A stretch of DNA of 64,000 nucleotides. It comes from an uncultured Lachnospiraceae bacterium (GTDB taxonomy: Bacteria; Bacillota; Clostridia; Lachnospirales; Lachnospiraceae). Below the pieces are notes generated by a model. It saw only the letters and a list, made by a program, of their open reading frames with translations, was not told the origin of the DNA and made no database searches. The stretch spans positions 185,298 through 249,297 of the forward strand of contig CAJTKU010000001.1 in NCBI GenBank assembly GCA_910577015.1, given 5' to 3'. Shown one piece after another: positions 5,475 to 41,857 of this stretch (position 1 is its first letter; every line of letters begins with the position of its first letter). A program made the position numbers and the translations under genes.

Positions 5475-7157
5475 CTATTCGGCTGACACAATATAATAAT
5501 AAATCGGCTGTCCGCCATACTGTAACTCTACATCACAGCCGGAATACTTTTCTTCCACTGCCTGTTTGATTTTTTCGGCATCCGCCTCATCCACATCACT
5601 TCCGTAGTAAATGCTGATAAGTTCCATATCCTCACCCATCATGGCATCCACCATACCCAACGTAATCTCAGATAAATCAGAGCCCACCGTCAAAATACCG
5701 GCATCCCCGATACCCATATAATCACCCTGCCTGATTACCTTATCCTCTATCTGGGTATCCCTGACGGCATATGTGACTTCACCTGTCTTAACATTGCTGA
5801 TTTCTTCGGACATCGCGGCAACATTCTCCTCTGCCGATAAGTCCGGGACAAAATTGATTACTGCCGTAATTCCCTGGGGTACCGTTTTGGTGGGAATGAC
5901 AATGATTTGTTTGTCCTTTACCAGCTGAGCCGCCTGATTGGCCGCCAGAATCACATTTTTATTGTTGGGAAGAATATAAACCGTATCGGCATTTACCTTT
6001 TCTATGGCGTCCAGCATGTCTGCTGTGGACGGATTCATCGTCTGTCCGCCTTCTATGACATAATCAACGCCCAGCCCCCTGAAGATTTCATTCATGCCCT
6101 CTCCAAGAGAAACCGCCACAAAACCGGACTGTTTTCTCTCCGCCGGTTCTGAAACCGCCTCTTGTGCTGCCTTTTCTTCTTCCTTTTTCTTTTCCGCTTC
6201 TTTAAACAGCTTTTCCTGATGCTCCAGACGCATGTTGTCTATCTTCATGTTGGACAATGCACCATACTTGAGAGCCCGTTGAATCGCCAGACCGGGGTCA
6301 TTGGTATGTACATGTACCTTAACCACATCGTCATCAGCCACACATACAATGGAATCACCTATGGATTCCAGAAATTCCTTGAAATCCAGTTCCTGTTTAA
6401 TATTGAAGGTACGGTTCAGCATAATGATAAATTCCGTACAGTAGCCAAACTTGATATCTGCTTCCGCTTTTACATCCTGCTTTGCTCCTGACCGTTTAGT
6501 CTCCTGCGCATCGGCAATGGTGTAATCGATTTCCTTTCCCTGGAAAGCGTCATAAGCGCCGGCAAGCACCTCCACAAGGCCCTGTCCGCCGGAATCCACC
6601 ACGCCTGCCTGCTTTAATACTGGCAAAAGCTCGGGTGTCTGGCTCAATACATAGCGGGCATGCTCGATAACCTTACCGATAAAGCCGTCCATGTCCTCCA
6701 TGCCGTCTTCCAAAAGTTCCCTTGCTTTCTCAGCCGCACCCCTGGCAACCGTAAGAATGGTTCCCTCTTTCGGCTTCATAACTGCCTTGTACGCAGTTTC
6801 CACTGCTTTATCAAGGGCATCAGTCAAAGCGGGAATATCGATTATCTCCAACTCCTTGATGCTTCTGGTGAGTCCCCTTAAAAGCTGGGATAAAATAACC
6901 CCGGAATTTCCCCTTGCGCCACGCAGGGAACCGGACGAAATAGCTTTACATAAAGATTTCATGTCAGGATTTTCGCCAAGGGCCGTAACCTCTTTCGCGG
7001 CAGACATGATAGTCAATGTCATATTGGTACCGGTATCACCGTCCGGAACCGGAAACACGTTTAATTCGTTAATCCATTCTTTTTTTGAATCCAGATTCTT
7101 TGCACCGGCTAAGAACATCTTTGCAAGCATCTTAGCGTCGATTGTATTTAAAGCCAC
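5475..7157 (-). CDS. DAK2 domain fusion protein (YloV family)
   Basis: 560 aa with a GTG start at 7157 behind aaggagg. It carries the Dak2 signature PDGDTGTNM and a C-terminal DegV-like/Dak1-related half. It sits in the conserved asp23-yloV-recG neighbourhood. Confidence 0.88.
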   Translation of the reverse strand: MALNTIDAKMLAKMFLAGAKNLDSKKEWINELNVFPVPDGDTGTNMTLTIMSAAKEVTALGENPDMKSLCKAISSGSLRGARGNSGVILSQLLRGLTRSIKELEIIDIPALTDALDKAVETAYKAVMKPKEGTILTVARGAAEKARELLEDGMEDMDGFIGKVIEHARYVLSQTPELLPVLKQAGVVDSGGQGLVEVLAGAYDAFQGKEIDYTIADAQETKRSGAKQDVKAEADIKFGYCTEFIIMLNRTFNIKQELDFKEFLESIGDSIVCVADDDVVKVHVHTNDPGLAIQRALKYGALSNMKIDNMRLEHQEKLFKEAEKKKEEEKAAQEAVSEPAERKQSGFVAVSLGEGMNEIFRGLGVDYVIEGGQTMNPSTADMLDAIEKVNADTVYILPNNKNVILAANQAAQLVKDKQIIVIPTKTVPQGITAVINFVPDLSAEENVAAMSEEISNVKTGEVTYAVRDTQIEDKVIRQGDYMGIGDAGILTVGSDLSEITLGMVDAMMGEDMELISIYYGSDVDEADAEKIKQAVEEKYSGCDVELQYGGQPIYYYIVSAE

Positions 7158-9158: not shown

Positions 9159-10163
9159 TTATTCCTCCCTTTTAAGTTGCTTTATAAAAATACGCAGCTG
9201 CTTATCCAGCAATACCCTTCCTGCCTGATGCAGAAGGGTAAATACGGTTATCCTTCCTTTTAAATAGAAATTTCCATTCAGTACCGCGTTCTCAAAATCT
9301 GCTTCCACATTCACATTATTGCCCAATACGGGTAACAGCATACCATACAAAGCGCAAAGATATCCTGTCGTGTCCGGTGAGCCTGTGCCGACCTGCACAT
9401 CCGCTTTCAACACCCTGGGACGGATGCTTTTCAATACGTTAAACAGCCTGCACCATACCCTTTGGTACAATCTTTGGTTGTCAATGTCAGTTAAAACATT
9501 TTTATAATATGAAATATTTTCTGCAATATGCTTTATCTTATCACATATTGATTGGATTGTGTACCATATCTTTGTGAATATATCCTTTATTTTTTGAATT
9601 TTCTCCTGCATCCATTTGACCGGATGTTTCCAAAAAACCGTTTTCTGTTCCGGTCGCGATACTTCGGCAGCTTCTTCTTTTTGCCGCGCATCTGCCTGCT
9701 TTGGTTCCTGTGCTTCTTCCTTCACCGGTTCCGCTTCCTGCGTTTCCTCTCCTGCCTGCTCCGCTTTCTGCGTTTCTTCCTGTTTCTGCGTTTCTTTCTG
9801 TTCCTGCGTTTTTTCCTGTTCCTGCGTTTTTTCCTGCCGCTCCGATTCAGGCAGCGGTTCTTCCTTCTGCTTCTTTGCAGACTTTTTTTCTTCCGCTTCC
9901 TTTACACCGGAAGCAGACATTTTAATGCCAAAGAGCCGTACAATAAGGCTTGCCGGTTTTGGATAGTCAAACCGTACTGTCAACATATGCAGGAGAAAAG
10001 ACGCCTTTGCCTCCAGCAAAATCTCTTTTTCCCTTTTGCTGCCCTTTATCCGGTACCTCACCGGCACAAAAAGCACCAAAAGCGCCAGCACAAGAAGCAG
10101 TCCCAGTATACATAACAGGACAATGCCGATTATGGCCAGTATTTGCAAAATCACATGTAACAT
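9159..10163 (-). CDS. DUF2953-type membrane protein with acidic QEKT/QEET repeat linker
   Basis: 334 aa with an N-terminal TM segment and a low-complexity EKTQEQEKTQEQKETQKQEETQK linker. The conserved C-terminal half, immediately upstream of ytfJ, is the usual DUF2953-ytfJ pairing. Confidence 0.65.
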   Translation of the reverse strand: MLHVILQILAIIGIVLLCILGLLLVLALLVLFVPVRYRIKGSKREKEILLEAKASFLLHMLTVRFDYPKPASLIVRLFGIKMSASGVKEAEEKKSAKKQKEEPLPESERQEKTQEQEKTQEQKETQKQEETQKAEQAGEETQEAEPVKEEAQEPKQADARQKEEAAEVSRPEQKTVFWKHPVKWMQEKIQKIKDIFTKIWYTIQSICDKIKHIAENISYYKNVLTDIDNQRLYQRVWCRLFNVLKSIRPRVLKADVQVGTGSPDTTGYLCALYGMLLPVLGNNVNVEADFENAVLNGNFYLKGRITVFTLLHQAGRVLLDKQLRIFIKQLKREE

Positions 10164-10606: not shown

Positions 10607-11059
10607 TCAGTAGTACTTCCTCGTACCCCATAAGTTATTTCTTTTCATTTCCAGATACTCTCCGTAAGCTTTCTCCAAAATCTGCTTTTCATTGGCAAAT
10701 TTGAGGAGATGGTACGCTTCATGGTATTTGTAAAATCCGGAATCAACAAAATACTCTTCGCGCTGTGGTTTACTGTAATAACTATCCGCCATCATCAAAT
10801 ACCAGTGGACCTCTTTCGCTACGACATCTTCCGGCACATTAAAGGAATATTCGCTTTTCCCGATGTATTTGATTACAGATGCCTGAGCCCCTGATTCCTC
10901 CAGCACTTCCCTGAGCGCCGTTTCTTTGAACTCTTCGCCTTCTTCCACTGTTCCCTTTGGCAATACCCATCCTTCGTATTTGTTTTTAAAATTTTTATAC
11001 AAAAGAAGTATTTTCCCACGGAATATAACCACACCGCCGCAACTGGTTGCTTCAATCAT
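10607..11059 (-). CDS. NUDIX hydrolase
   Basis: Nudix box GWVLPKGTVEEGEEFKETALREVLEESG. The likely start is ATG 11059 (MIEATSCGG), 8 nt after AGGAGG. Confidence 0.85.
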   Translation of the reverse strand: MIEATSCGGVVIFRGKILLLYKNFKNKYEGWVLPKGTVEEGEEFKETALREVLEESGAQASVIKYIGKSEYSFNVPEDVVAKEVHWYLMMADSYYSKPQREEYFVDSGFYKYHEAYHLLKFANEKQILEKAYGEYLEMKRNNLWGTRKYY

Positions 11060-11154
11060 TGCAATTCCTCCTGCCATTGGTGTGTCAATTTGTTTGACCT
11101 AAATCCAGTATAGTCCAAATACGCATGGGGCGCAACTGTTTTTATTTGGGAGTT

Positions 11155-11357
11155 TTCACCCCTGCCCCGGCAAGGCATCCCCGACCCCGGCGTGCATTTG
11201 TTCCAACAGGACGCGCTCCCGCTCGAGTAAAAACGCAGCGGCACATAGGATGCCACAGAACAGCATCCAAGGGCCGGCGTTTTTACACGGTCCTTTTTGG
11301 AATCAAATGCACGCCGGGGGCGGGGATGCCTTCCCGGAGGCGGGGTGCGGAAGTGAA
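11155..11357. repeat. Nested palindromic intergenic element, copy A (about 200 bp)
   Basis: Arms aaggcatccccgaccccggcgtgcatttgttcca / tggaatcaaatgcacgccgggggcggggatgcctt pair. The core taaaaacgcagcggcac-ata-ggatgc(cacagaaca)gcatcc-aag-ggccggcgttttta is the reverse complement of the core in copies B2 and C. The element starts 6 nt after the stop of the upstream gene. Confidence 0.85.
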
Positions 11358-11362
11358 GGCCT

Positions 11363-14065
11363 TTACCGGTTAAACCATGCGTTAAACACCCTTTTAGCCA
11401 TGGGGACTGCGTAGTCGCCGCCGCTGCCGGCGCCCTCCAGAATAATGGTTACACAGATTTGCGGATTTTCGGCGGGCGCAAAGCCGGTGAACCATGCATG
11501 GCTTTCCCCTTTTACATTGCCGTACTCCGCCGAGCCGGTTTTTCCCGCAACCGTATAGGACAAACCGGAAATTCTGGTTGCAGTTCCTTCCTCGACTACC
11601 GCCGTCATAAGCCCTGCAAGAATCTGTGCCTCTTCTTCTGACATCACTCTTCCGTATGCGGACGCGCCAAATGTTTTCACAAGGTTTCCGTTTGCATTTT
11701 CCACATGGTCAATCAGATACGGTTTCATCATAATACCGTCATTGGCAATGGCTGCCGTAATCATATTCAGGTGCAGGGGCGTTATCTGGGTTTTTCCCTG
11801 TCCGATTACCGTCTGCATCATATCCGCCGGAGAAATTTCATCCCAGTACAGGGCGCTGCTCTTTGCGGAAAGGAAACTGACAGGAAGATTTTTATTGAAA
11901 AGCAGTTTTTCCAGCGTATCCTGCAGCATGGCTTCGTCAAGGCTCATTCCGATATTTGCAAAGGAAGCGTTACAGGACTTGGCAAACGATTCCGTCAAAT
12001 CTACCTTCCCGTGGCTTATCCCATGGTAGCAGCGTATCCGATTTCCATCCTCTTCATAATATCCCGGACAGGTAAAAGAATAATCCTGCCAGGTGTCAGG
12101 GTTTTCCCTGATATATTCCAGGGCAGTTACAATCTTAAAGGTGGAGCCGGGAGGATACAGTCCCTGGGACGCCCTGTTTACCAGCACGCTGCTTTCCTTG
12201 TCCTCCACCAAGTCCTCCCATATATCCGCGATTTCGTTGGAATCAAAGCCCGGCGTGGAAACCATGGCAAGAATCCTGCCCGTGGAAGGCTCTGAAACAA
12301 CTATGGCTCCCCTGTAGTTGTCAAGCGCTTTAAACGCCGCCTCCTGCAGCGCTGCATCAAGGGTGGTGTAAACATTATCACCCGCATTCTTTGCCCCTGC
12401 AACATCGTTTGCAATCTTTTCCGGAAGAGGCAGATTGGAATGAATGAGGTAATAATTGGCCTGCGCCTCGATGCCTGTCCTTCCCTGTGTGGAAAAACCA
12501 ACCACGTGGGAAAAGACTTCACCATAAGGGTACCATCGTTCTTCCGTGCCGTCTGCCAAAAGCTTCGTCTCCGCCAGCGCCTCTCCCCCGGATGCATAAA
12601 TGCTTCCCCTGTAGTTTTGCATATTCAGCATTTCCTGCCTGGAATTATAGCTGTTGTTGATTAATTCCTGTTCGTTTGTAACGGCAAAATAAACCAGATA
12701 GCCAATCATTCCCAAAAACAACAATACAAAAGAATATACAACCTTTACCCCGTACTGCTCAGCCTTTGCATTTACTTTCCTGACTGATATGGCTTCCACA
12801 ATAAAAAACATCAGCACGGTAGCCAGAACGGAACTTCCCCCATAGCTGAGAAACGGCAGTGTAACGCCCGTCAGCGGTATGAACTTGATACCGCCCCCAA
12901 TGGTCAGAAATACCTGAAATATATACATAACCCCAAGCCCAAGGGCTGTCAGTTTATAAAACCTATCCTTCTGGCGCATTCCAATCTGCATCATGGCCAT
13001 AAAACAGCTTACACAGATTAGTATGATACAGACACCGCAAATTACACCGAGTTCTTCACAAATGGCAGAAAAAATGAAATCCGTTTCCACCTGTGGGATA
13101 TCTCCCGGCGCGCCGCCAAAAAGCCCTAGTCCAAACCAGTTTCCGCTGCCTATAGCAAAAAGCGACTGTGAAATCTGAAAACCCTGATTGTCAATATAGG
13201 CAAACGGGTCCTGCCAGGCCAGTACCCGTATCCGCACATGGTCAAAAAGATAATAGGCCCCTATCGCACCCCCGCTTCCTGCCACCAGACCGATTAACAG
13301 ATACCAATAATTCCCCGTTGCCATGAACACAAAAACCACATATGTCACAAAAAAGATGACTGCCCCGCCAAGGTCTTTTGACGCCACCAGTATCATTACA
13401 TGCCCTGCCGCCAAAACCGAGGTCAGCACAATCCGTTTAAACGACGTATTTTCACAGAGCATGGCCGCAAGGAAAAGAACAAACAAAATTTTCACAAACT
13501 CGGAGGGCTGAAACGTAATTCCTCCAATCGAAAAAGAAAGCTTGGAGCCGCGTGTGATATCTCCCAATACAAACACCGCCGTAAGAACAAAAATCCCCAT
13601 TGCCGCATACAGCCATTTTAATTTGGGAAGAAATTTTATATTCTGCATCAGGGCGGGAACCGTCAGCCCGATTACCATGGCAAACGCCGCAATCACAAGC
13701 TGCCTTATGGATTTTTGCAGGGATAACCTTGATAAAACCACAAAGCTGATTCCCAACAGCATACACATATTGTTGAGCAACAGACGGTTTATTTTTTCGT
13801 AAAGCATCCTTGCCAAAAATATGACGGCAACCAGCAGAAGCTGCACAAACGCGCAGAAAAACAGATAGTCCCCATCGCCGCTTTTTAAGTAAATAACTGC
13901 AAAACATAAAAGCTGTACCGCAAACAGCAGAATTTCCTGAACGGCATAAACTCCCCTTTTTTTCTTTTCTTCCTTTATGCGCAGCGCCAGAAAACATTCC
14001 AGTGTATAAACCGACATACAAACGGCAATCAGATATTTTGACAATTCTATAAAATATTCCTGCAT
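11363..14065 (-). CDS. Fused SEDS glycosyltransferase (FtsW/RodA/SpoVE) + class B penicillin-binding protein transpeptidase
   Basis: ORF 11363..14101. ATG 14065 (MQEYFIEL) avoids overlap with the upstream gene. The N-terminal ~450 aa is polytopic with SEDS motifs QPSEFVK, SKDLGG, ETDFIF and PLTGVTLPFLSYGGSS. The C-terminal ~440 aa has PBP motifs STFK, SCN and KTGS in one uninterrupted frame. Confidence 0.88.
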   Translation of the reverse strand: MQEYFIELSKYLIAVCMSVYTLECFLALRIKEEKKKRGVYAVQEILLFAVQLLCFAVIYLKSGDGDYLFFCAFVQLLLVAVIFLARMLYEKINRLLLNNMCMLLGISFVVLSRLSLQKSIRQLVIAAFAMVIGLTVPALMQNIKFLPKLKWLYAAMGIFVLTAVFVLGDITRGSKLSFSIGGITFQPSEFVKILFVLFLAAMLCENTSFKRIVLTSVLAAGHVMILVASKDLGGAVIFFVTYVVFVFMATGNYWYLLIGLVAGSGGAIGAYYLFDHVRIRVLAWQDPFAYIDNQGFQISQSLFAIGSGNWFGLGLFGGAPGDIPQVETDFIFSAICEELGVICGVCIILICVSCFMAMMQIGMRQKDRFYKLTALGLGVMYIFQVFLTIGGGIKFIPLTGVTLPFLSYGGSSVLATVLMFFIVEAISVRKVNAKAEQYGVKVVYSFVLLFLGMIGYLVYFAVTNEQELINNSYNSRQEMLNMQNYRGSIYASGGEALAETKLLADGTEERWYPYGEVFSHVVGFSTQGRTGIEAQANYYLIHSNLPLPEKIANDVAGAKNAGDNVYTTLDAALQEAAFKALDNYRGAIVVSEPSTGRILAMVSTPGFDSNEIADIWEDLVEDKESSVLVNRASQGLYPPGSTFKIVTALEYIRENPDTWQDYSFTCPGYYEEDGNRIRCYHGISHGKVDLTESFAKSCNASFANIGMSLDEAMLQDTLEKLLFNKNLPVSFLSAKSSALYWDEISPADMMQTVIGQGKTQITPLHLNMITAAIANDGIMMKPYLIDHVENANGNLVKTFGASAYGRVMSEEEAQILAGLMTAVVEEGTATRISGLSYTVAGKTGSAEYGNVKGESHAWFTGFAPAENPQICVTIILEGAGSGGDYAVPMAKRVFNAWFNR

Positions 14066-14072
14066 ACTCTTT

Positions 14073-16391
14073 CTATTCCACTCCCCTCTTTTCATGCCCA
14101 AGAGTGTATTCCGTAAAAGGAAGCTTATTTTCCACTCCCCTTATTCTTTCCGAAAAGAACCGCAGTATGCCTTCGGTTTCCGCTCCTGTTTCTGTTGTAA
14201 AGCACAGTCTCATGTCGCATAATGTTTCCTTTTTCAGCACCTTATCGTGTAAGGATAGCGGCACTGAATTATAAATGATATTGTAACAATACCGGCAGTG
14301 GAGGGATACCGGAAACTTCTTCTTATAACGGTCCTCCAGAAATAAGCCTGCTTTTTCTTCCTTTGCCTGCGAAGACTGTCCGCATTTTCCCGATGTCTTT
14401 GCAATACAGTTTGCCGTAATCATCAGCGGAATCCGCCCGTATACCACCTGTTCCGTTTTTCCGGAAGCCTGTTCCAAAAGCCTCCTGCTTTCTTTCCTGT
14501 TCAGCTCATACGGCAGGCAAAAACAATCAGCCTGTCCCATATAAAAATCCATAGTACGCGTGTTGAAACAGTAAATTCCCGCATCCAGTCTTTTTTCTCC
14601 TGCGTACCCCCGCTTTTTCAGCCATTCAAGGGTTTCCAGATTCCGTATCAGACAACCGTCCGCTTTTACCGCCAAAGGATACAACGCTTCCATCTGCTCC
14701 ATGTTGTTTTGGCGCACGATAAAGGGCAGGGCAATGAAAACGCGAACCTTTCCGTTTTGCGCCACACGCTTCCTGCACTGTTCCAAAAAACTTACGGAAA
14801 GTCCCGGCATATCGGATTCCAGACAGATGCTTTCCACAGGCGCATCCGTTTCCATGACCGCCTCCAGCTGCTCCCTCGTGCTGACAAGGACGTTAAATGC
14901 CCTGTACTCTTTTTCTGTCTCCTGCTTTCCGCCCGTACCTCCTGCTCTTTTCGCATTTTCTTTCCTATTCCCGCCGGCATCCTCTTTTATGGCTGTCTGT
15001 CCCGTCCCTTTCAAGGTTCTTCCATGTCCCAGCGCGCCCAAAAGCTTCTCAACCCCTTTACGGCGCAAATCATTGACTGCCTTTAAAGGATAAAAAACGC
15101 CTTTATCAAGCCTTATCTCCAAATCTGCCTGTTCTGCATAAAAGGGAGTGTTTCCCAGCTTCATCATGCCGTTTCTTATATTTTCTTCTGTTACGGGCTG
15201 TCTGTCTGCCAAAACCACCTTTTCCCCGTATACAATCACCGAACGGCGCTCTGTATTTCCCTGCAGGGGGAATTGGGTTTCGCAGGACAGGGTGAGTTTT
15301 GCATTCTCCCCCTCCCTGAAAACAGCTTCCATACGTATCGCTTTCTTTAAGGGCTGTTCAATATATTTATTCCTGATTGCAGACAAAAGCTTTTCGTCAC
15401 TGCCCGAATAGGCAGGGTAATCCAAGGTTACCATTTCTGCGCCGTTATGCCTGAAATAATATCCCTCCTGTATGCCTGTGCGGATATACAGGGAAGAAAG
15501 CTGTCTTAAGTCCTCTTTCTTTACGGCATAGGCAGCGGCTCCCTTTTCATAATACAAATCAATGTACTTTCTGTAAATCGCCGTTACCCCCGCCGCATAT
15601 TCCGGCTTTTTCATCCTTCCTTCTATTTTAAAGGAAGAAATACCCGCTTCAATCAGCTTTGGAAGGAAAGAGATGGTACACATATCCTTCAGGCTCAACG
15701 GATGCTGCTCCGTGCCCGGCTTTCCGTCTCCGCCAATCCTGTACGGCAGGCGGCACGGCTGGGCGCACCTGCCACGGTTTCCGCTCCTGCCCCCCAATAT
15801 ACTGCTGAAAAGGCACTGCCCCGAATAACAATAACACATGGCGCCATGGATAAAAGCTTCTATCTCCAGACCGGTTTCCCTCCCAAGGCTTTCTATTTCC
15901 GAAAGGGAAAGCTCCCTCGCAGGCACTACCCTCACCACGCCCAGTTCTTTGAGCATCCCGGCCCCATAACTGCCCGTTATGCTCATCTGAGTGCTGGCAT
16001 GAAGCTCCAGTCCCGGGAAAGCCTCCTTTATGGCAAGCAGAGCGCCGATATCCTGCACGATAACGCCGTCAAGCCCGGCAAGGTAAAACGGCTCCAGATA
16101 TGGAATTAATTCCTCCAGTTCCGATTCTTTCATCAGCGTGTTGACCGTCAAATATACTTTTCTTCCGAAAACATGGGCATAAGAAACCGCCCTGCAGATT
16201 TCCTCTTCGGAAAAATTGTCCGCATAGGCCCTTGCACCGAACTTTTCACCGCCCAGATAAACTGCATCCGCTCCTGCGCATATAGCGCCCAGAAAACTTT
16301 CATAGTTCCCTGCCGGAGCCAATAATTCCACACGCCTCTTTTCCATAAAATCAAACAACGCCATCCGTTTCCGGACAGCGCCCTTTCTCAT
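14073..16391 (-). CDS. Double-length peptidase U32 family protein
   Basis: 772 aa. VELLAPAGNYESFLGAICAGADAVYLGG...VYLTVNTL is the U32 N-terminal signature, and a second U32-like half follows a G/K/E-rich linker. ATG 16391 overlaps the zapA stop (ATGA); the alternative start is ATG 16346. Confidence 0.8.
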   Translation of the reverse strand: MRKGAVRKRMALFDFMEKRRVELLAPAGNYESFLGAICAGADAVYLGGEKFGARAYADNFSEEEICRAVSYAHVFGRKVYLTVNTLMKESELEELIPYLEPFYLAGLDGVIVQDIGALLAIKEAFPGLELHASTQMSITGSYGAGMLKELGVVRVVPARELSLSEIESLGRETGLEIEAFIHGAMCYCYSGQCLFSSILGGRSGNRGRCAQPCRLPYRIGGDGKPGTEQHPLSLKDMCTISFLPKLIEAGISSFKIEGRMKKPEYAAGVTAIYRKYIDLYYEKGAAAYAVKKEDLRQLSSLYIRTGIQEGYYFRHNGAEMVTLDYPAYSGSDEKLLSAIRNKYIEQPLKKAIRMEAVFREGENAKLTLSCETQFPLQGNTERRSVIVYGEKVVLADRQPVTEENIRNGMMKLGNTPFYAEQADLEIRLDKGVFYPLKAVNDLRRKGVEKLLGALGHGRTLKGTGQTAIKEDAGGNRKENAKRAGGTGGKQETEKEYRAFNVLVSTREQLEAVMETDAPVESICLESDMPGLSVSFLEQCRKRVAQNGKVRVFIALPFIVRQNNMEQMEALYPLAVKADGCLIRNLETLEWLKKRGYAGEKRLDAGIYCFNTRTMDFYMGQADCFCLPYELNRKESRRLLEQASGKTEQVVYGRIPLMITANCIAKTSGKCGQSSQAKEEKAGLFLEDRYKKKFPVSLHCRYCYNIIYNSVPLSLHDKVLKKETLCDMRLCFTTETGAETEGILRFFSERIRGVENKLPFTEYTLGHEKRGVE

Positions 16392-33642: not shown

Positions 33643-34146
33643 TTACTCTTCTATATATGTAATATTATCCGTTCCGCGGCTCAATCCTGCGATGCCGGTC
33701 CTCGCCAGTTCCAAAATCTCGTACCCTTCCAGCAGGCTGATAAAGGCGTCTATCTTTGTCTGGTCGCCGGTCATTTCCACAATCAGGCTTTCCGGACCCA
33801 CATCAATAATATTGGCGCGGAAAATCCCTGCCAGGGAAATCACTCCCTGCCGCTCGCTGGCCCTTGCGCGCACTTTAATCAGGGCAAGCTCCCTGTAAAC
33901 GCTCTCCTCCGGCCTTAACTCCTTGATATCCCTTATATCTACAAGCTTTGCAACCTGCTTTTCAATCTGCTCCAAAACCTGGTCGTCACCGCTTGTCACA
34001 ATCGTAATCCGCGAAAACCTGGGGTCTGCTGTCACCCCCGCTGTGATGCTCTCAATATTATAACCGCGTCTGGAAAATAATCCTGATATTCTGCTCAACA
34101 CGCCGGAAGTATTTTCCGCCAACAGTTGAAATACTTTTTTCTGCAA
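33643..34146 (-). CDS. ilvN: Acetolactate synthase small (regulatory) subunit, paralog 2
   Basis: ACT domain LLAENTSGVLSRISGLFSRRGYNIESIT plus a C-terminal ACT-like domain. The ORF track begins at TTG 34167. TTG 34146 is better spaced from GGAGG, so the start is uncertain. Confidence 0.85.
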   Translation of the reverse strand: MQKKVFQLLAENTSGVLSRISGLFSRRGYNIESITAGVTADPRFSRITIVTSGDDQVLEQIEKQVAKLVDIRDIKELRPEESVYRELALIKVRARASERQGVISLAGIFRANIIDVGPESLIVEMTGDQTKIDAFISLLEGYEILELARTGIAGLSRGTDNITYIEE

Positions 34147-34220
34147 TGCTTTTTCCTCCACTATCAATCATCCCTTAGTTTTTAACTATAGCAATAGTTG
34201 CGGGTGTTGTCAAGATTTTT

Positions 34221-34430
34221 GCATGAAGGGATGCTGTCGTTAGGATGTCGCGAGTGACGCGGGATGAAACGGATATTCCCGCGTCACCGCGCTTTCGCTC
34301 TGTTAAAAACGTAACAGTGCTAAGCTCGAAAATACCTCGCTAAGCGCTGACGTTTTTAAAAGGGTTCCTTCGGGAATATCCGTTCCATCCCGCTGTTTCC
34401 CAAAGCGGCCGCCTGACGGCATCCCGCATG
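34221..34430. repeat. Nested palindromic intergenic element, copy B1 (diverged, same orientation as A)
   Basis: gggatgaaacggatattccc pairs with gggaatatccgttccatccc. The outer pair is gcatgaagggatgc / gcatcccgcatg. The core is cgcgctttcgctctgttaaaaacg...cgtttttaaaag. Confidence 0.75.
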
Positions 34431-34513
34431 TACTGTAGTATTTTTTAGAAGTTTACGGGCAGGCGGCGTATCCTGCTAAATCAGGACACTTTGTGAGGGA
34501 ACGCCGTGTTACA

Positions 34514-34651
34514 GCAGCCGGAAGCCTTATATTCCTGTGAAGACCTTTTAAAAACGCCGGCATTTAGGCGCTGTATTTCAGCGCCTTACGTGCCGCTGCG
34601 TTTTTAAAGAGCGAAAGCGCGTCTGAATGGGAATATAAGGCTTCCGGCTGC
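34514..34651. repeat. Nested palindromic intergenic element, copy B2
   Basis: A perfect 21-bp basal stem, cagccggaagccttatattcc / ggaatataaggcttccggctg. The core is aaaaacgccggcatttag-gcgct(gtatttc)agcgc-cttacgtgccgctgcgttttta. Confidence 0.85.
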
Positions 34652-34692
34652 GTCACTCTCGTCACACCCTTTACCTTAAACGGCGCTTGCCC

Positions 34693-35181
34693 CTAGGTAT
34701 CGCTCTCCGAACACTTCGGCAGCGCCAGCGTCCCCGTCCTTGCCACTTCCACGATGCTGATGGATGCCAGCATCTGGATGAACAGCTTGGTTTTTTCGGG
34801 AATGTCGCAGACCTGAATCATCATCTGGCTCTTGGACATGTCCACGATATCCGCTTTCATCATTTCACAGATTTCCATGATTTCGCGGCGGGTGGTTTTG
34901 TTGTATTTTACCTTTATCAGCATCAATTCCCTGCTGATGCTGCGCGACTCATCAAAGGTTTTTACTTTTATGACATCCAGCTTTTTATTCAATTGTTTTT
35001 CTATCTGCTCTATGGTGCGCTCGTTGCCGCTGGAAACAATGGTCATGCAGGATACGGCGGAATCGTCCGTTTCTCCTACCGCAAGACTGTCAATATTGAA
35101 GCATCTTCTGGAAAAGAGCCCTGCCACCTTGCACAATACGCCGGAACGGTTCTCCACCAGTACTGAATATATCTTTTTCAT
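34693..35181 (-). CDS. ilvN: Acetolactate synthase small (regulatory) subunit, paralog 1
   Basis: ATG 35181 (MKKIYSVLVENRSGVLCKVAGLFSRRCFNIDSL). It lies 18 nt downstream of the ilvB stop. Confidence 0.88.
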   Translation of the reverse strand: MKKIYSVLVENRSGVLCKVAGLFSRRCFNIDSLAVGETDDSAVSCMTIVSSGNERTIEQIEKQLNKKLDVIKVKTFDESRSISRELMLIKVKYNKTTRREIMEICEMMKADIVDMSKSQMMIQVCDIPEKTKLFIQMLASISIVEVARTGTLALPKCSESDT

Positions 35182-35199
35182 AAGCAAAACCCTTCCTTC

Positions 35200-36816
35200 C
35201 TACTTTACCAAATCCATGGGGTCAATCAGGCATTCCAGCAGCATTGTCTTGTCCTCTTTTAAAAATGCGTCGATAATTTCCTCCGCTTTCTCCATATTTT
35301 CCAGCCTGAGGAACGGGATTTCATATGCCGCCGAAAGCTTTTCCAAATCAGGACTTCCCGAAAGGTCCACCACGGAATACTGGTCTTTATATGTGTAATG
35401 CTGGTATTCCCTTACCATACCCAGATAATTGTTTTTTAGGACGATTATCTTTACCGGTATCTGATGCTGTCTTATGGTCGCAAGTTCCATCATGGACATC
35501 TGGAAGGAGCCGTCGCCGCAGACAGCGATAACCTGCTTTGACATATCTGCCAGTTTTGCTCCCATAGCCGCCGGAATGGAATATCCCATCGTACCCATAC
35601 CTCCGGAGGTAAGAAATTTCCCCTCTTTCACAATATGATATCCGCAGGACCATATCTGGTTCTGTCCTACGTCTGCCACATAGACGCCGTCAGCCTGCAT
35701 TTTTTCGGATAGCCGGGTGATAAAAGCAGCCGGGTCCACATAGGCAGGATTGGGCGTCCTCTTTTTTTCCATGGTGGAACGGTATCCGTCCAACGCCTCT
35801 ATCCACTCTTCATGCTCGCAGGCAAATTCCTGTTGGGCAAAATCCATAAAAATATTTCTGGCGTCCCCTACCAACGGTATGGTCGGTCCCGCATTCTTAC
35901 CTATTTCCGCCGGGTCCACATCGATATGTACAAGCACCTTATTCTGCGTAATCAAATCCGGCTGGCTCACCGCGCGGTCTGCCACGCGCGCCCCCACCAT
36001 AATCAGCATGTCGGACTCATTCATTGCCCTGTTGGCATATGCTTTTCCGTTGTTTCCCACCATTCCGTAGTAGAGCGGATGCTCCGTGGGCATAACGCCG
36101 ATACCCATCATGGTGGATACAACCGGAATCCTGTGCTTTTCCGCAAAACTCCTAAGTTCCTCCTTGCCGCCGCTTAACAAAACGCCGCCGCCGGCACAGA
36201 TAATGGGACGTTTTGCATGTTCAAGCTCCTTTACCACTTTCTTAATCTGGACTGCATGTCCTTTGACCGTGGGCTTATAAGTCCTTAAGGATACTTCTTC
36301 CGGATAAGAAAAACGGCTGATTGCCGCATTCTGCACGTCAATGGGTATGTCAATCAAAACCGGACCCTTTCTTCCTGAATTGGCAATGTAGAACGCCTCC
36401 TTAAAAATCCGGGGAATCTCCTGTACATTTTTTACCAGATAGCTGTATTTCACGAAAGACTCAACCGCCCCCGTAATATCCGCCTCCTGGAACACATCGC
36501 TTCCCAGCAATTCACTGTCTACCTGTCCGGTAATGCAGATTAAAGGTATGCTGTCCGCAAACGCTGTTGCTATGCCGGTGATGACATTGGTGGCTCCCGG
36601 ACCGGACGTTACGGCGCACACACCGGGCCTGCCGGTGATTCTTGCCATGCCGCTTGCCGCATGTGCGGCATTCTGCTCCGTACGAATCAGAACGGTCCTG
36701 ATATCAGACTGTAAGATACTATTATAAAAAGGACAGATAGCGACTCCCGGATAGCCAAAGACTACTTCCACACCTTCCGCCTCGAGACATTTGATTATGG
36801 CATCTGCTCCTATCAT
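35200..36816 (-). CDS. ilvB: Acetolactate synthase large (catalytic) subunit
   Basis: 538 aa with MIGADAIIKCLEAEGVEVVFGYPG and the ThDP motif GDGSFQM...N. SD gggagg is upstream. Confidence 0.92.
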   Translation of the reverse strand: MIGADAIIKCLEAEGVEVVFGYPGVAICPFYNSILQSDIRTVLIRTEQNAAHAASGMARITGRPGVCAVTSGPGATNVITGIATAFADSIPLICITGQVDSELLGSDVFQEADITGAVESFVKYSYLVKNVQEIPRIFKEAFYIANSGRKGPVLIDIPIDVQNAAISRFSYPEEVSLRTYKPTVKGHAVQIKKVVKELEHAKRPIICAGGGVLLSGGKEELRSFAEKHRIPVVSTMMGIGVMPTEHPLYYGMVGNNGKAYANRAMNESDMLIMVGARVADRAVSQPDLITQNKVLVHIDVDPAEIGKNAGPTIPLVGDARNIFMDFAQQEFACEHEEWIEALDGYRSTMEKKRTPNPAYVDPAAFITRLSEKMQADGVYVADVGQNQIWSCGYHIVKEGKFLTSGGMGTMGYSIPAAMGAKLADMSKQVIAVCGDGSFQMSMMELATIRQHQIPVKIIVLKNNYLGMVREYQHYTYKDQYSVVDLSGSPDLEKLSAAYEIPFLRLENMEKAEEIIDAFLKEDKTMLLECLIDPMDLVK

Positions 36817-36894: not shown

Positions 36895-36906
36895 CAAAAA
36901 TTTTAT

Positions 36907-37091
36907 GATTCCGCATACGGCATGGCGGCAGCCCCGGCGCGCATTTGATTCCATAAAGGACCGTGTAAAAACACCGGCATTTAGAGGTTGTATTTTAACC
37001 TCTTATGTGCCGCTGTGTTTTTACCCGAGTGAGAACGTGTCCTGTTGGAACAAATGCGCGCCGGGGCTGCCGCCATGCCGTATGCGGAATC
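36907..37091. repeat. Nested palindromic intergenic element, copy C (185 bp, 41-bp perfect basal stem)
   Basis: gattccgcatacggcatggcggcagccccggcgcgcatttg (36907-36947) is the exact reverse complement of 37051-37091. The core is aaaaacaccggcatttag-aggtt(gtatttt)aacct-cttatgtgccgctgtgttttta. Confidence 0.9.
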
Positions 37092-37097
37092 ACAAAT

Positions 37098-39605
37098 TTA
37101 TCTCATCTGTTCCATAAGCCTGCCCGCCAGTTTTACTGCTTCCGCTGCGTCCTTGGAATATCCGTCCGCGCCGATTTCCCGTGCGTATTCTTCTGTGATA
37201 ACGGCGCCGCCCACCATGAATTTTGCAGTGACTCCCTGCTCTCTGGCGTACTTTATGACAGCTTCCATCTGCTTCATGGTCGTTGTCATCAGCGCGGAAA
37301 GGGCTATAATGGAAGCATTATGCTGCTTTGCCGCTTCAATAATTGTTTCTTTGGGGACGTCCTTGCCCAAGTCTACCACCCGAAAACCATAGTTTTTTAA
37401 CATCAGGGCCACCAGATTTTTACCGATATCGTGAATGTCCCCTTCCACCGTGGCAATGATGATGACGGGCATGTCTTTCCCGGTCTTCTCGGTAAGAAGC
37501 AGTGGTTCCAGCACTTCAATGGCAAGCTTCATTGCTTCCGCGCCTGCAATCAACTGTGGAAGGAAATACCTTCCGCTGTCAAAGTAATCCCCTACCGTGT
37601 TAATGGCCGGCAAAAGCACTTCGTCCAACAGCGCCCTTGGCTCTTCCCCTTCTGCAAGGGCATCCCGCGTTATCTGCACAATTCCGCTTTTGTTCCCTTT
37701 TAACACCGCTTCTTTCAGCATATGCCTTACCGGACTGCCTTCTTCCTTTCCGCCGTCCTTTTTGGCTTCCTTACCTTCCTGCCCCTTTTCCACGCTCTTT
37801 GCAGCTGCCGGAGCGGCCGCCTGCAAATGCCGCAGGGCTTCTTCTCGCTGTTCCCTCTTTTCTTTCAAAACGCCCGCATAAGATATGTAGCGCATGTCTG
37901 CGTCTTCTTTGTTCAAAAGCAAATCAGCCGCAAACGCACAGCCCATTAACAGTTCCTGTGATGGATTGGCAATCGCCATGGTAAGTCCCGATTGTATCGC
38001 CATCGTCAGAAAGGCCGTATTCACATAACCTCTCTCCGGCATTCCGAAAGATATGTTGGAAAGCCCGCAGATTGTAGCAAACCCTTCCTTTTTGCAGAAA
38101 CGGATTGTTTGCAGGGTTTCTAACGCCGCCGTTTTATTGGCCCCCACCGTATTCACCAGTCCGTCCACCACAATATCTTCCTTTTGAAATCCGAGGTCTT
38201 TTGCCCTCTCCCATATTTTGCGGATAATCTCCTTTTTTTCCTCCAGATTGGCCGGCAGTCCTGCGTCGGAAAGCGGAAGCAGGATAAACATGGCGCCGTA
38301 TTTTTTTACAATGGGAAGCAACCGCTCAAATTTTTCCTTCTCATAGGAGACGGAATTGATTAAAGCCCTGCCGGGGTAACGCCTAAGCGCCGCTTCCAGA
38401 ACGGAGATATGGCTGGAATCAAGGGAAAGGGGCAGACTGGTAACCGTGCCCACCTCCTCAATCGCCTTCAGCATCATCTCCTTTTCGTCTATACCACCCA
38501 TCCCCATGTTGACGTCAAGGATACTTGCTCCGCAGTTCTCCTGTTCCTCCGCAAATTCCCTGACCATATCAAGGGAGCCTTCTTTAAGCGCCGCCTGCAG
38601 TTTCTTTTTGCCGGTAGGGTTGATGCGCTCCCCCACCACGATAAAAGAATTATCCAAGGTAAAGGACACCGTCTGTCTTTCAGACGCAAGACAGCGAAGG
38701 CCTGACTGTCCTTTACACCTTCCCTGCCTTTCCACTCCCAATTTCTCTTTAAGCAATGCAATATATGAGGGCTGGGTGCCGCAGCATCCGCCAAATATAG
38801 AAGCCCCTGCTTCTTTCAACAGCCTCATTTCCTCTGCAAATTCTTCGGGCTGCATGTCATAACAGGTATTTCCCTCCTTGTCCACAAAAGGAAGCCCTGC
38901 ATTGGGTTTCGCTATAACGGGAATCCTCACCGCCTGCGCCATTTCCCCGATAATACCCTGCATGGCAGCAGGACCCGTGGAGCAGTTTGCCCCGATAGCG
39001 TCTGCGCCTAAAGAGGAAAGCACTACTGCGGCAGTTAACGCGTCTGTCCCGAAAAGGGTTCTGCCGTCCCCTTCAAAAGTCATCGTCACCATAACGGGTA
39101 AATCGCAGGTTTCTTTGGCTGCAATGAGGGCTGCCCTGGTCTCCTGCAGGCTCATCATGGTTTCTATGACAAGCAAATCAACCCCTGCATCCAGAAGCGC
39201 CAGAATCTGCTCTTTATAGATGGTAATTAATTCCTCAAAATCCATCTTTCCGATAGGGGCAAGCTGCTGTCCCGTCATGGTAAGGTTTCCTGCAATATAA
39301 GCTTTACCTTCCGCCGCCTGCCTGGACAATGCCACCAGTTTTTTTGTCATATCCCTAAGATTATTCTGCAGGCCGTATTCCGCAAGTTTAATCCTGTTTG
39401 CCGAAAAAGTAGGTGCATAAAGGATATTACTGCCCGCTTTAACATAAGCCTTTTGCAGTTCCAGAAGTACCCCGGGGTTTTCCAGAATCCACTTTTCAGG
39501 ACAGACGCCCGCAGGCATTCCCGCTTTCATCAGGTTAGAACCGGTCGCCCCATCCAGATATATATTATTTTTACTGCTCCAAGCCGCAAATTCCTTTTTC
39601 GTCAT
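37098..39605 (-). CDS. metH: Methionine synthase, short form (Hcy-binding + pterin-binding + B12-binding; no reactivation domain)
   Basis: ORF 37098..39653; ATG 39605 (MTKKEFAAW). Domain order was read from motifs (GGCCGT region, pterin-binding barrel, DIHDIGKN B12 loop). The protein ends right after the Rossmann B12 domain. Confidence 0.88.
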   Translation of the reverse strand: MTKKEFAAWSSKNNIYLDGATGSNLMKAGMPAGVCPEKWILENPGVLLELQKAYVKAGSNILYAPTFSANRIKLAEYGLQNNLRDMTKKLVALSRQAAEGKAYIAGNLTMTGQQLAPIGKMDFEELITIYKEQILALLDAGVDLLVIETMMSLQETRAALIAAKETCDLPVMVTMTFEGDGRTLFGTDALTAAVVLSSLGADAIGANCSTGPAAMQGIIGEMAQAVRIPVIAKPNAGLPFVDKEGNTCYDMQPEEFAEEMRLLKEAGASIFGGCCGTQPSYIALLKEKLGVERQGRCKGQSGLRCLASERQTVSFTLDNSFIVVGERINPTGKKKLQAALKEGSLDMVREFAEEQENCGASILDVNMGMGGIDEKEMMLKAIEEVGTVTSLPLSLDSSHISVLEAALRRYPGRALINSVSYEKEKFERLLPIVKKYGAMFILLPLSDAGLPANLEEKKEIIRKIWERAKDLGFQKEDIVVDGLVNTVGANKTAALETLQTIRFCKKEGFATICGLSNISFGMPERGYVNTAFLTMAIQSGLTMAIANPSQELLMGCAFAADLLLNKEDADMRYISYAGVLKEKREQREEALRHLQAAAPAAAKSVEKGQEGKEAKKDGGKEEGSPVRHMLKEAVLKGNKSGIVQITRDALAEGEEPRALLDEVLLPAINTVGDYFDSGRYFLPQLIAGAEAMKLAIEVLEPLLLTEKTGKDMPVIIIATVEGDIHDIGKNLVALMLKNYGFRVVDLGKDVPKETIIEAAKQHNASIIALSALMTTTMKQMEAVIKYAREQGVTAKFMVGGAVITEEYAREIGADGYSKDAAEAVKLAGRLMEQMR

Positions 39606-39930: not shown

Positions 39931-40404
39931 TTGAAAAACAGATTTCTGCTGCTCTTGTCATCACTTGTTTTATGCTTATCTCTGGCAGGCTGCGGCGAAG
40001 ACCCCCAATTAACACAGTTTAAAAATGACATTGACTCTTTTTGCAACGAAATCGCTGTCATTGACACCAACATCAACAGCATAGACGCACAGTCCGAAAA
40101 TGCAAAATATGAGCTTCTCGGCTATCTTGACCAGCTGGACCAGTCTTTCAAGACACTGGCGGAGATTACCGTACCGGAAGAATACGCATATATTGAAGGG
40201 CTTGCAGATGAGGCAAGCAGTTATATGACCATTGCCGTGGAGTCTTATCACGAAGCGTTTGGGGAAAGTTCTTACAATGAATACACTGCGGAGTATGCAA
40301 GGGAAAATTATGAGAGAGCCTACAAACGCATCACAGTTATTATAAAACTATTGCACGGGGAAGATATTTCCGACCTGGGTGCGACCATTGAAGAAAGCGA
40401 ATAA
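39931..40404 (+). CDS. Lipoprotein (157 aa)
   Basis: TTG start 8 nt after GGAGGA. Signal peptide with lipobox LSLAGC. The mature part is not recognised. Confidence 0.7.
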   Translation: MKNRFLLLLSSLVLCLSLAGCGEDPQLTQFKNDIDSFCNEIAVIDTNINSIDAQSENAKYELLGYLDQLDQSFKTLAEITVPEEYAYIEGLADEASSYMTIAVESYHEAFGESSYNEYTAEYARENYERAYKRITVIIKLLHGEDISDLGATIEESE

Positions 40405-40409: not shown

Positions 40410-40449
40410 TACCCAATAAAAAACCGCATAGGCGGTTTTTTATTGGGTA
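40410..40449. terminator. Bidirectional terminator shared by convergent genes
   Basis: A perfect 18-bp stem tacccaataaaaaaccgc-atag-gcggttttttattgggta. The right arm contains the last codons of the deacetylase gene. Confidence 0.8.
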
Positions 40450-41231
40450 AAATCAGATAACGGCCTGAACTCATATCCCATTTCTTCCCATCTGGTAAGC
40501 AGTTCATCGAGAATTTCCCCGTTTGTCTGCGAGGTGCTATGTAACAGTACAATGGCTCCGGGATGTATCCTGCCAATTAATTTATCGAAAGCTTCTTCTC
40601 TTGTCGGCTGGTTATCCTGATACCAGTCCACATAGGCGAGACTCCAGAAAAAGGTATGATATCCCAGTTCTTTTGCCATCTGCAAATTCTCCTTACTGTA
40701 CTTTCCCTGGGGCGGCCGGTAATACATTGCCAAATCCTCTCCGGTTATCTCCTTAAACAGGGCGGAAACATCTTCCATTTCCCTTTGAAAAGAATCCATG
40801 CTGGAAATCTGTGACATATCAGGGTGATGAAAAGTGTGATTGCCCACCGTATGGCCTTCTTCCACCATTCTCTTCACGATATCCGGCGCTGATTCCAGAA
40901 AATGACCCACCACAAAAAAGGTAGCCGGAGCATCATGATTTTTCAGGGCGTCCAGTATCGGTTCCGTATTGCCGTTTTCAAATCCACAGTCAAACGTCAG
41001 GTATATTACCATCTTACTGTCATCACCCACATAATGGGCATTATATTTTTCCAGTTCATCACTGGTAGCATTCCCTGTCGGCTGCGCACCTTCTTTTCCA
41101 AACCCCAATCCCCAGTTTTCGGTTTCCACCAGATGGGATGAGGCAGTTTCCACATAATGTACCACATATCCTGCCGCCCTGCCCAAAAAGAACATCGCTA
41201 CAAAAAGCGGCAATACCCAAAATTTTTTCAT
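40440..41231 (-). CDS. Polysaccharide deacetylase (NodB/PdaA-like)
   Basis: 263 aa with an N-terminal signal/TM. Contains TFDCGFENG and HTFHHPDM NodB motifs. Confidence 0.85.
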   Translation of the reverse strand: MKKFWVLPLFVAMFFLGRAAGYVVHYVETASSHLVETENWGLGFGKEGAQPTGNATSDELEKYNAHYVGDDSKMVIYLTFDCGFENGNTEPILDALKNHDAPATFFVVGHFLESAPDIVKRMVEEGHTVGNHTFHHPDMSQISSMDSFQREMEDVSALFKEITGEDLAMYYRPPQGKYSKENLQMAKELGYHTFFWSLAYVDWYQDNQPTREEAFDKLIGRIHPGAIVLLHSTSQTNGEILDELLTRWEEMGYEFRPLSDFTQ

Positions 41232-41320: not shown

Positions 41321-41857
41321 TTAGAAATATCTGTAAAAACTTGGGTCATTGATAACCACATTCAAATATACGCAGAAGAAAACGATTGCCACTACAATGC
41401 TGATTGCAGATACAATAATTGCCGCAATACCCAGCCCGGATTTTTTCTTAACCTGTCCGATAATGGAAAAGATAAGACCCACTATACCAATCAATGCGGA
41501 AATCCAGCTTAAAATACAGGAAGACAAAAGCGCTAAGATAGCAATTACAAAGCCTGCAATAGACAATCCGCTGGTGCCGCCTGTGGTCTGCATCGGAACC
41601 GCATAAGGCTGCTGGTACATATTCTGGTCCGGCATCTGCTGGTATGCATTCTGCTCATAACCAGTCTGCTGGTACGGCTGCTGATAGCCCTGCTGATAAT
41701 TAGGCTGCTGATAGCCCTGCTGTTGATAACCCGGCTGTTGATAGTTAGGCTGCTGATAACCCGGCTGCTGATAGTTAGGCTGCTGGTAGTTCGATTGTTC
41801 CGGCGTCTGTGAAGGCTGCTGCCCGGAATAGTTGTTATTGAAATTTTGTCCGTCCAT
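41321..41857 (-). CDS. Membrane protein with N-terminal Q/P/Y-rich repeats (QPNYQQPGYQQ) and C-terminal two-TM domain
   Basis: 178 aa. The tandem repeats are visible in DNA at 41640-41800. The C-terminal TM hairpin resembles those of 43208..43792 and 43935..44213. Confidence 0.7.
   Translation of the reverse strand: MDGQNFNNNYSGQQPSQTPEQSNYQQPNYQQPGYQQPNYQQPGYQQQGYQQPNYQQGYQQPYQQTGYEQNAYQQMPDQNMYQQPYAVPMQTTGGTSGLSIAGFVIAILALLSSCILSWISALIGIVGLIFSIIGQVKKKSGLGIAAIIVSAISIVVAIVFFCVYLNVVINDPSFYRYF

Follow-up and report, generated by a model that had tools for sequence, protein, structure and literature searches.

A palindromic element with a conserved folded core in gut Lachnospiraceae: probable member of a new family of IS66-type miniature transposable elements

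The stretch of DNA analysed here (the window) comprises 64,000 nucleotides of an uncultured Lachnospiraceae bacterium (assembly GCA_910577015.1, contig CAJTKU010000001.1, positions 185,298 to 249,297), and the subject of this report is a palindromic element in it, copy A, together with its relatives in the window and in other genomes. Copy A lies between an FtsW-penicillin-binding protein (PBP) gene and a NUDIX gene, and 15 nt separate the end of its palindrome from the stop codon of the former (11363). The FtsW-PBP gene is one 912-aa open reading frame (ORF) at 11363-14101 on the minus strand that joins FtsW/RodA/SpoVE, PBP dimerisation and transpeptidase domains. Three related copies occur elsewhere in the window. 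Copies B1 and B2 lie between two paralogous acetolactate-synthase small-subunit genes on the minus strand, ilvN and an ilvN-like gene (33643-34167 and 34693-35187), whose spacer of 525 nt is nearly all repeat, and copy C lies between metH and ilvB. An element strand can be defined because the core of the element is asymmetric; it is the window minus strand for A and B1 and the plus strand for B2 and C. The features of copy A are as follows.

11157..11347, minus (the element strand): whole palindromic element, inverted repeat I4, with 44-nt arms that are 89% complementary
11304..11347, minus: 5' outer arm of I4
11290..11293, minus: 5' strand GGAC of helix 1 (P1), which pairs with GTCC at 11209-11212
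11228..11285, minus: core, formed by helix 2 (P2; TAAAAACGCCGGC / GTGCCG-CT-GCGTTTTTA; 96% paired) and the apical hairpin
11248..11268, minus: apical hairpin GGATGCT-GTTCTGT-GGCATCC (helix 3)
11237..11238, minus: CT, the conserved bulge of 2 nt on the 3' side of P2
11213..11224, minus: GNRA mini-hairpin GAGC-GGGA-GCGC, loop at 11217-11220
11157..11200, minus: 3' outer arm of I4

A search of the window with the core pattern TAAAAACRYCRGY-N20-45-GYRCYGYTRYGTTTTTA gave four matches against 0.00 expected by chance, and an nhmmer profile run over the window recovered A, B1, B2 and C and nothing further. The positions of the three other copies are given below.

34259..34393, minus: copy B1, with arms at 34259-34281 and 34371-34393 (inverted repeat I10), core at 34304-34358 and GNRA hairpin at 34288-34301
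34514..34651, plus: inner hairpin of copy B2, with arms at 34514-34544 and 34621-34651 (inverted repeat I5), core at 34549-34606 and GNRA hairpin at 34608-34621
36899..37099, plus: copy C, with arms at 36899-36947 and 37051-37099 (inverted repeat I3, 96% complementary) and core at 36966-37023
37027-37039, plus: GNRA hairpin of copy C, GAGT-GAGA-ACGTG

The degenerate outer inverted repeats of copy B2 extend to about 34463-34690, and its inner hairpin ends 41 nt short of the ilvN-like stop (34693); the arm of copy C overlaps the metH stop (37098-37100) by 2 nt. The apical stem is paired in copy A (GGATGCT/GGCATCC), in copy B2 (AGGCGCTG/CAGCGCCT) and in copy C (AGAGGTTG/TAACCTCT). Folded as RNA, copy A reached -139.9 kcal/mol (z = -11.8) and copy C -144.2 kcal/mol (z = -21.7). 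The outer portion of the 5' arm of copy A is copy-specific, and its inner portion (GCATTTGATTCC) is common to copy C and to the copies of MGBC100230, a metagenome-assembled genome (MAG). The core of copy C is identical to that of a close relative, L042 (L numbers denote loci and contigs outside the window).

The locus had been described before from its sequence, and the core which that original prediction quoted for copy A on the opposite strand was located on the minus strand at 11228-11285. The four pattern matches support its statement that A, B2 and C form one family with conserved flanking blocks. It had also described apical stems that differ between copies and pair in each, which holds, and had given their length as 5 bp, which does not, the stems being 7-8 bp long. 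The distance of 6-42 nt that it had given from minus-strand stop codons to the copies is about right, and we agree with it that the spurious ORFs 11056..11256 and 11125..11373 fall in the element. It had recognised no named motif, and no Rfam family matched in our scans either: the gathering-threshold scan of the whole window gave 0 matches, and E-value scans of the copy A region, of 34150-37200 (with B1, B2 and C) and of a copy from a sister subfamily gave none or chance-level matches (among them Ms_IGR-2, E = 0.57, and mir-2566, E = 3.3). A tRNA/tmRNA scan found none, and no promoter-like site was found around copy A. The earlier description overlooked that a GNRA mini-hairpin, which is strand-asymmetric, follows GTTTTTA on its 3' side, that P2 has a 2-nt bulge and that the element is a dispersed repeat with many copies.

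The anatomy of the element was read from an alignment of the four window copies and then of 62 diverse copies. The results showed that it is a near-perfect DNA palindrome of 130-230 nt around a strand-asymmetric core of about 95 nt, and that the core folds as a three-way junction of P1, P2 with the apical hairpin, and the GNRA mini-hairpin. P1 and a short junction lead to P2, whose base is TAAAAAC…GTTTTTA (AAAAAC/GTTTTT) and whose 3' strand carries a 2-nt YT bulge (first base C in 91 and T in 30, the second base T being fixed by the pattern). An internal loop, TTAG/TTA, lies below the apical stem, which is 7-8 bp long and variable in sequence and carries a loop of GTNYTTT type. Between copies, all four pairs of P1 and all seven pairs of the apical hairpin vary on both sides. 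The mini-hairpin, (A)GC-GNRA-GC(G), stands on the 3' side of the core only. A census of 146 distinct copies found a GNRA loop on it in 142 (GAGA 59, GAAA 45, GGGA 28, GCAA 5, GGAA 3, GCGA 2), with position 2 free to vary and positions 1, 3 and 4 held as G, R and A, and the mini-hairpin stem alternates between GC/GC (129 copies) and GT/AC (11 copies). In one large subfamily the apical stem contains tandem G.A/A.G mismatches, which share their strand with the GNRA loop. In diverged copies AAAAAC/GTTTTT gives way to GAAAAC/GTTTTC, AAGAAAC/GTTTCTT, CAAAG/CTTTG or CTTACCG/CGGTAAG, with pairing retained. Secondary small insertions were seen in some copies (L012:3672-3800 and 6140-6205; L027:292-406), among them a 23-nt mini-hairpin, AAACGTATCATGAATGATACGTT, after the GNRA hairpin and an insertion of ~20 nt in the apical region. 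Three short motifs considered as candidates within the element, namely CS-6 (TAGCGA) of ssoA origins, the Shine-Dalgarno-like AAGGAG and the -10-like TATAAA, were dropped, each being limited to some subfamilies.

The distribution of the family was surveyed by running the strict core pattern on a species-representative genome collection and on viral contigs, and by matching copy A and a sister copy with a plasmid collection. The pattern gave at least 111 genome loci in the collection, many per genome, and among the matches listed all were from Lachnospiraceae or Eubacteriales; carriers include Eisenbergiella tayi DSM 26961, Lachnospiraceae CE91-St56 (AP025576.1, with a copy at L002), Robinsoniella and Acetatifactor, as well as numerous MAGs of gut origin (mouse, human and ruminant). 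At least 33 species-representative assemblies are represented among the 80 loci listed, a single assembly contributing as many as 10, and a profile search of the collected loci gave 159 matches. The viral contigs held no match to the core pattern, and the plasmid collection none to copy A or the sister copy. The window itself derives from a Lachnospiraceae of the mouse gut. MGBC100230 contains near-identical copies and an orthologous B locus, and a 743-kb mouse-gut contig has an identical IlvB and equal spacer lengths. Logan short-read contigs with identical NUDIX and IlvB proteins (L112, L113, L115) end inside copy A or at core C, with break points at about window position 11214 for copy A and at about 36965, the first base of core C, because repeats break short-read assemblies.

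The copies are always intergenic, and only spurious ORFs such as those named above cross them. They stand between tandem, divergent and convergent gene pairs in the numbers 62/16/16, which resembles the background of 437/77/75. Where the flanking genes are co-directional, the element strand runs antisense to them in 40 cases and sense in 22, so that both orientations occur, and the neighbouring genes are functionally unrelated housekeeping genes. Literature searches found no description of a Lachnospiraceae IS66-type family of MITEs (miniature inverted-repeat transposable elements) or of one with this core.

Evidence for mobility comes from a large sister subfamily, which is bounded by a 14-bp terminal inverted repeat (TIR), GTAACAGTTCAGCC…GGCTGAACTGTTAC. 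Perfect 8-bp target-site duplications (TSDs) were found in this subfamily (CTTCTTTC, ACTTATAG, TGTTCCCG, ACTGTTGT, ATTTTTTC and TTTTCATG), and the loci with both the TIR and a perfect TSD are L069, L070, L028, L075, L101 and L004. Over the whole family, TSDs matching at 7 or more of 8 positions were seen in 10 of 105 copies against 1.1 expected. One clean pair of filled and empty sites was obtained: L056 carries an entire palindrome at 2273-2380, and L111 has nothing of it, neither core nor arms, at the orthologous site. A second candidate pair, L007 and L004, had insufficiently homologous flanks. Copy B1 is mostly missing from its ortholog L031, in which the core and one arm are gone and the other arm and the element tail are kept, a state that is best explained by deletion between 6-nt direct repeats. 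The L031 state had prompted the idea that the copy-specific outer arms are produced on insertion, through an inverted duplication of the target, or that the element enters the loops of hairpins already in place. This proved unnecessary, and an origin of the arms by inverted duplication was dropped because the L031 remnant has an element-derived tail and the empty site of L111 lacks both arms. At another orthologous site (L099:3980-4380 and L034:5080-5440) two genomes have differing versions of the element, L034 having a solo left terminal repeat where L099 has the full element, which points to repeated insertion, deletion and rearrangement at one spot.

A metagenome scan revealed two full-length insertion sequences (ISs) that are bounded by exactly GTAACAGTTCAGCC and encode PF03050 (DDE_Tnp_IS66), at L274 262-2116 and L296 65-1643. 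Relatives of this type of transposase occur in Lachnospiraceae, and one mouse-gut IS66-type element ends in GGCTGAACCGTCAC. ISDge4, a member of the ISBst12 group of the IS66 family, has GTAACTGCTCAGCA and GTGACTACTCAGCA as its TIRs, with a direct repeat of 8 bp (PMC12898284); the sister TIR matches GTAACTGCTCAGCA at 11 of 14 positions. Many MITEs with unrelated interiors also carry TIR GTAACAGTTCAGCC and perfect 8-bp TSDs (L256, L269, L278, L284, L330, L337, L087:1726-1781, L217:406-665 and others), from which it follows that mobilisation is the business of the terminal repeat, with the core as cargo. Palindromes of 28-51 nt consisting of the terminal repeats only were also found. The ends of IS66-type ISs fold the TIR back on itself (L356:3230-3280; L274:262-295; TCAGCC-GAAA-GGCTGA and GTTCAGCC-TACC-GGCTGAAC), which may explain why this TIR readily yields palindromic mini-elements.

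Copy A shows several features of a MITE: it is non-coding and shorter than about 500 bp (elements of the family measure 125-260 nt), its inverted arms measure 44 nt, and its family has many dispersed copies and a presence/absence polymorphism (L056/L111). An IS66 partnership was defined by ends that start with GTAA or GTGA, a match to an autonomous DDE_Tnp_IS66 IS and an 8-bp duplication; these features are present in the sister subfamily, and copy A has no such TIR in or beside it. The window copies are assigned to the family because their core and inner arms are homologous to those of the sister subfamily. Taken together, it is likely that copy A belongs to a new MITE family, spread among gut Lachnospiraceae and marked by a conserved folded core, a judgement that covers the whole explanation, IS66-type mobilisation and the role of the core included. 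Movement is demonstrated for the sister subfamily and presumed for copy A. The elements would most likely be mobilised in trans by a DDE transposase of IS66/ISBst12 type; copy A and its relatives in the window would share the core and inner arms by descent, and their ends would have diverged, perhaps as old or immobile copies. The original prediction had pictured a functional RNA or DNA hairpin; sister TIRs, 8-bp TSDs, polymorphism, IS66 partners and the occurrence of either orientation indicate a dispersed mobile element and not a discrete hairpin gene bound to its upstream neighbours.

Several results weigh against this explanation as applied to copy A. Matches to the IS66-type TIR in the window (3 or fewer mismatches) number three against 3.5 expected, and none flanks a copy; nor was a TSD seen at A, B1, B2 or C. 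Empty sites for A and C, sought via identical NUDIX and IlvB proteins, were not found, the search giving only filled sites or broken contigs and thus none for A. Neither the window nor the 111 genome loci yielded a transposase with TIR GTAACAGTTCAGCC, and an autonomous IS partner was absent from the viral contigs and turned up in the metagenome scan only.

Compensatory changes have a different meaning in the arms and in the core. The outer arms show Watson-Crick pairing at 5519 of 5882 aligned positions, with G.T 93 times and A.C 92 times, and their sequences vary between copies in blocks, both arms changing in concert. Concerted change of this kind is expected at the DNA level from inheritance of a palindromic master and from arm-to-arm templated correction of quasi-palindromes, and these two processes presumably keep the arms complementary here. 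The outer arms are strand-symmetric DNA palindromes. Their compensatory changes are no proof of selection, because two-sided changes are expected in any DNA palindrome, and they provide a clean case in which covariation alone misleads, the arms covarying as DNA without strand-specific selection. The balance of G.T and A.C was discarded as a test for an RNA strand; it is symmetric in the arms and informative only as a negative, post-insertion decay being symmetric anyway.

In the 62 diverse cores, by comparison with shuffled ones, 92.7% of cells are standard pairs (shuffled, 77.5%) and the covariation score is 0.452 (shuffled, 0.181; 0.05-0.13 with partners slid). Both sides vary in 23 of the 30 core pairs, and G.U prevails at two pairs. 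The compensatory pattern noted in three copies by the original prediction thus persists, and strengthens, in the larger alignment. Arm correction would erase the GNRA hairpin on its single side, as well as the bulge and internal loops, yet they persist, and these asymmetric features span subfamilies with unalignable arms and dozens of species, which argues for selection on a folded single strand, RNA or single-stranded DNA (ssDNA). The selected structure that had been proposed from the compensatory changes is therefore supported for the core by its asymmetries and not for the arms, whose two-sided changes are expected without selection.

The symmetry of the arms raises the question of whether the compensatory pattern is nothing but a functionless by-product of palindrome maintenance in a decaying selfish repeat, with a core conserved since its copies are young. 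Such an origin would fit the equal numbers of G.T and A.C, the concerted variation of the arms and the identical cores of some copies, for example C and L042. It would not fit a core conserved over at least 33 species and over subfamilies with unalignable arms, nor a bulge, one-sided GNRA hairpin and internal loops that persist in 97% of copies despite palindrome correction, nor a GNRA loop in which position 2 is free and positions 1, 3 and 4 are fixed as G, R and A. We consider this origin very improbable.

Two further observations count against the explanation that we favour. The two strands fold nearly equally well (RNA mean difference, 1.2 kcal/mol; copy A as DNA, -25.8 versus -26.3 kcal/mol), so that stability singles out neither strand as the functional one, nor RNA or DNA as the molecule. 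In addition, a C.A mismatch is conserved in 23 of the 62 aligned cores and in 66 of 121 distinct strict cores, and it counts here because the opposite strand would read a G.T wobble at that place. RNA and ssDNA both stand as the setting of the fold, because the strands fold about equally and GNRA-type mini-hairpins are stable as DNA too.

If the setting is RNA, the element might be a structured non-coding RNA that serves the host, either a small RNA gene or a cis-regulatory element of the 3'-untranslated region, transcribed from the GNRA strand, its repetition being secondary. The strong covariation in every helix, the GNRA loop of 97% of copies with compensatory changes in its stem, the location of tandem G.A pairs and purine-rich internal loops on the GNRA strand, the prevalence of G.U at two core pairs and the slightly greater stability of the core on that strand are all in line with such an RNA, which, since no known family matches, would be new. 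Its copies, however, occur in both orientations with respect to flanking genes, antisense being commoner (40 versus 22), their neighbours are functionally unrelated, copy A shows no promoter-like site around it, and sister copies have TIRs, TSDs and insertion polymorphism. Furthermore, the GNRA hairpin lies downstream of the U-tract and would therefore be absent from a transcript terminated there, and Hirao and colleagues are said to have found that mini-hairpins of d(GCGAAAGC) type are very stable in DNA too. A host RNA of this kind is accordingly improbable.

If the setting is ssDNA, the core might serve the propagation of the element itself, either as a hairpin extruded on the lagging-strand template that juxtaposes the ends for the transposase, or as a site for an ssDNA enzyme (HUH of IS200/IS605 or REP-RAYT type) or an attC-like recombination site. 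The arms are complementary in the strand-symmetric manner that DNA predicts, folds with DNA parameters give the junction on both strands, IS66-type IS ends fold back on the TIR, and the architecture recalls attC in its AAC…GTT stem, its bulged bases and a terminal hairpin conserved in structure and variable in sequence. On the other hand, TIRs with 8-bp TSDs imply a DDE enzyme acting on double-stranded ends, whereas HUH and integrase systems leave no such duplications, and MITEs with the same TIR and unrelated, non-palindromic interiors also transpose, so the core is dispensable for mobility. TAAAAAC/GTTTTTA departs from RYYYAAC/GTTRRRY, the consensus of attC R boxes, each copy stands alone among housekeeping genes and not in a cassette array, and the orientation bias is weak. 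Such a role in propagation is decidedly improbable.

Under the MITE explanation, the core would be selected as a folded single strand, most likely as RNA in read-through from neighbouring genes. The P2 hairpin, flanked by A5 and U5, may act as a terminator or as a 3'-end-stabilising hairpin in either orientation, and ending or stabilising transcripts irrespective of orientation would limit the harm of insertion and make insertions tolerable. A hairpin followed by T5 is present on both strands in most copies. The terminator role is the weakest step of the explanation and is proposed only tentatively: the U-tract is just 5 nt long and is lost in some subfamilies (CAAAG/CTTTG, CTTACCG/CGGTAAG), the elements are not enriched between convergent genes, and a simple terminator scan picked only a sub-optimal sub-hairpin, all of which speaks against it.

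The likeness of the element to known systems was also considered. The closest known kind is the MITEs of the IS66/ISBst12 group, with which the family shares the sister TIR, the 8-bp TSDs and a short, non-coding, multi-copy, intergenic form; it differs from them in that the interior and not the ends is most conserved and in that the window copies have no canonical TIR. Neisseria Correia elements (CREE), enterobacterial ERIC and pneumococcal RUP/BOX are small intergenic palindromes; co-transcription turns them into long hairpins, through which the processing, stability or termination of mRNA can be altered. The action of the element would probably resemble that of these hairpin repeats, although it has no sequence relation to them and differs in host phylum, TIR and TSD (Correia duplicates TA). 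A three-way junction with an obligatory GNRA mini-hairpin is, to our knowledge, absent from all of them.

REP/REPIN elements, which RAYT (HUH) enzymes mobilise, are likewise extragenic, palindromic and multi-copy and form hairpin doublets. REPINs have neither TSDs nor DDE-type TIRs and need a conserved tetranucleotide with a hairpin on ssDNA, whereas the sister copies have both TSDs and IS66-type TIRs, which speaks against a REP/REPIN identity, although no search was made for a RAYT gene. Integron attC sites resemble the element in the precedence of structure over sequence, an AAC…GTT basal stem, strand identity conferred by extrahelical bases, variability of the terminal hairpin and a location just after stop codons. 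The likeness is one of form only, and an attC identity was rejected: the R-box consensus is unmet, the copies are solitary with no cassette arrays and no nearby integrase, and the element adds long arms, a GNRA hairpin and, in sister copies, TSDs. Bidirectional intrinsic terminators also consist of a GC-rich hairpin between an A-run and a T-run, readable on either strand and downstream of genes, but the hairpin of the element is 55-68 nt long with internal loops and a bulge, lies inside a larger palindrome and has a U-tract of 5 nt. Elsewhere in the window, an inverted repeat of 20 nt, perfect, spaced by 4 nt and flanked by A/T runs (40408-40451), lies between the convergent ORFs 39931..40404 (plus) and 40440..41231 (minus); it looks like an ordinary bidirectional terminator and contrasts with the core of the element.

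It is also conceivable, though rather unlikely, that the core represents a structured RNA (or ssDNA) module of a new class, carried by IS66-type MITEs and with a specific action after their spread. The parts of this module would be the GNRA-capped side hairpin, the bulged P2, the tandem G.A pairs and the U-rich apical loop, and its possible roles include binding of a host protein or RNase, or forming an orientation-independent transcript boundary. The core retains asymmetric RNA-like motifs over dozens of species and, if functional, would be a mobile structured-RNA module.

Whichever role the core has, the family matters for the annotation and assembly of gut Lachnospiraceae genomes and as a candidate RNA motif, and it is not a new principle. 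It generates spurious ORFs like the two at copy A, short-read assemblies of these abundant gut bacteria break exactly at its core, and its insertion polymorphism provides markers for strain typing. Lying a few nucleotides from stop codons, and overlapping one in copy C, it probably influences, at many loci, where transcripts end and how far operons are read through. It also ties MITEs of gut Firmicutes to IS66/ISBst12-type transposases.

The window contains other repeats besides the element. A tandem repeat with a 15-nt period and at least 10 CTGCTGATAnCCnGG-like units lies at 41606-41809 in the minus-strand ORF 41321..41857 and probably encodes a low-complexity pentapeptide repeat. An 18-nt-period repeat, CTGTTCCTGCGTTTTTTC-like, lies at 9729-9841 in ORF 9159..10163 of the minus strand, whose product matches DUF2953 weakly. 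A 77-nt direct repeat, AT-rich, apparently intergenic and 99% identical between its two copies 8.4 kb apart (54005-54081 and 62423-62499), may be a duplicated promoter or operator region. Finally, a 268-nt direct repeat of 81% identity at 43324-43591 and 43955-44222, 631 nt apart, may mark tandem paralogous genes.

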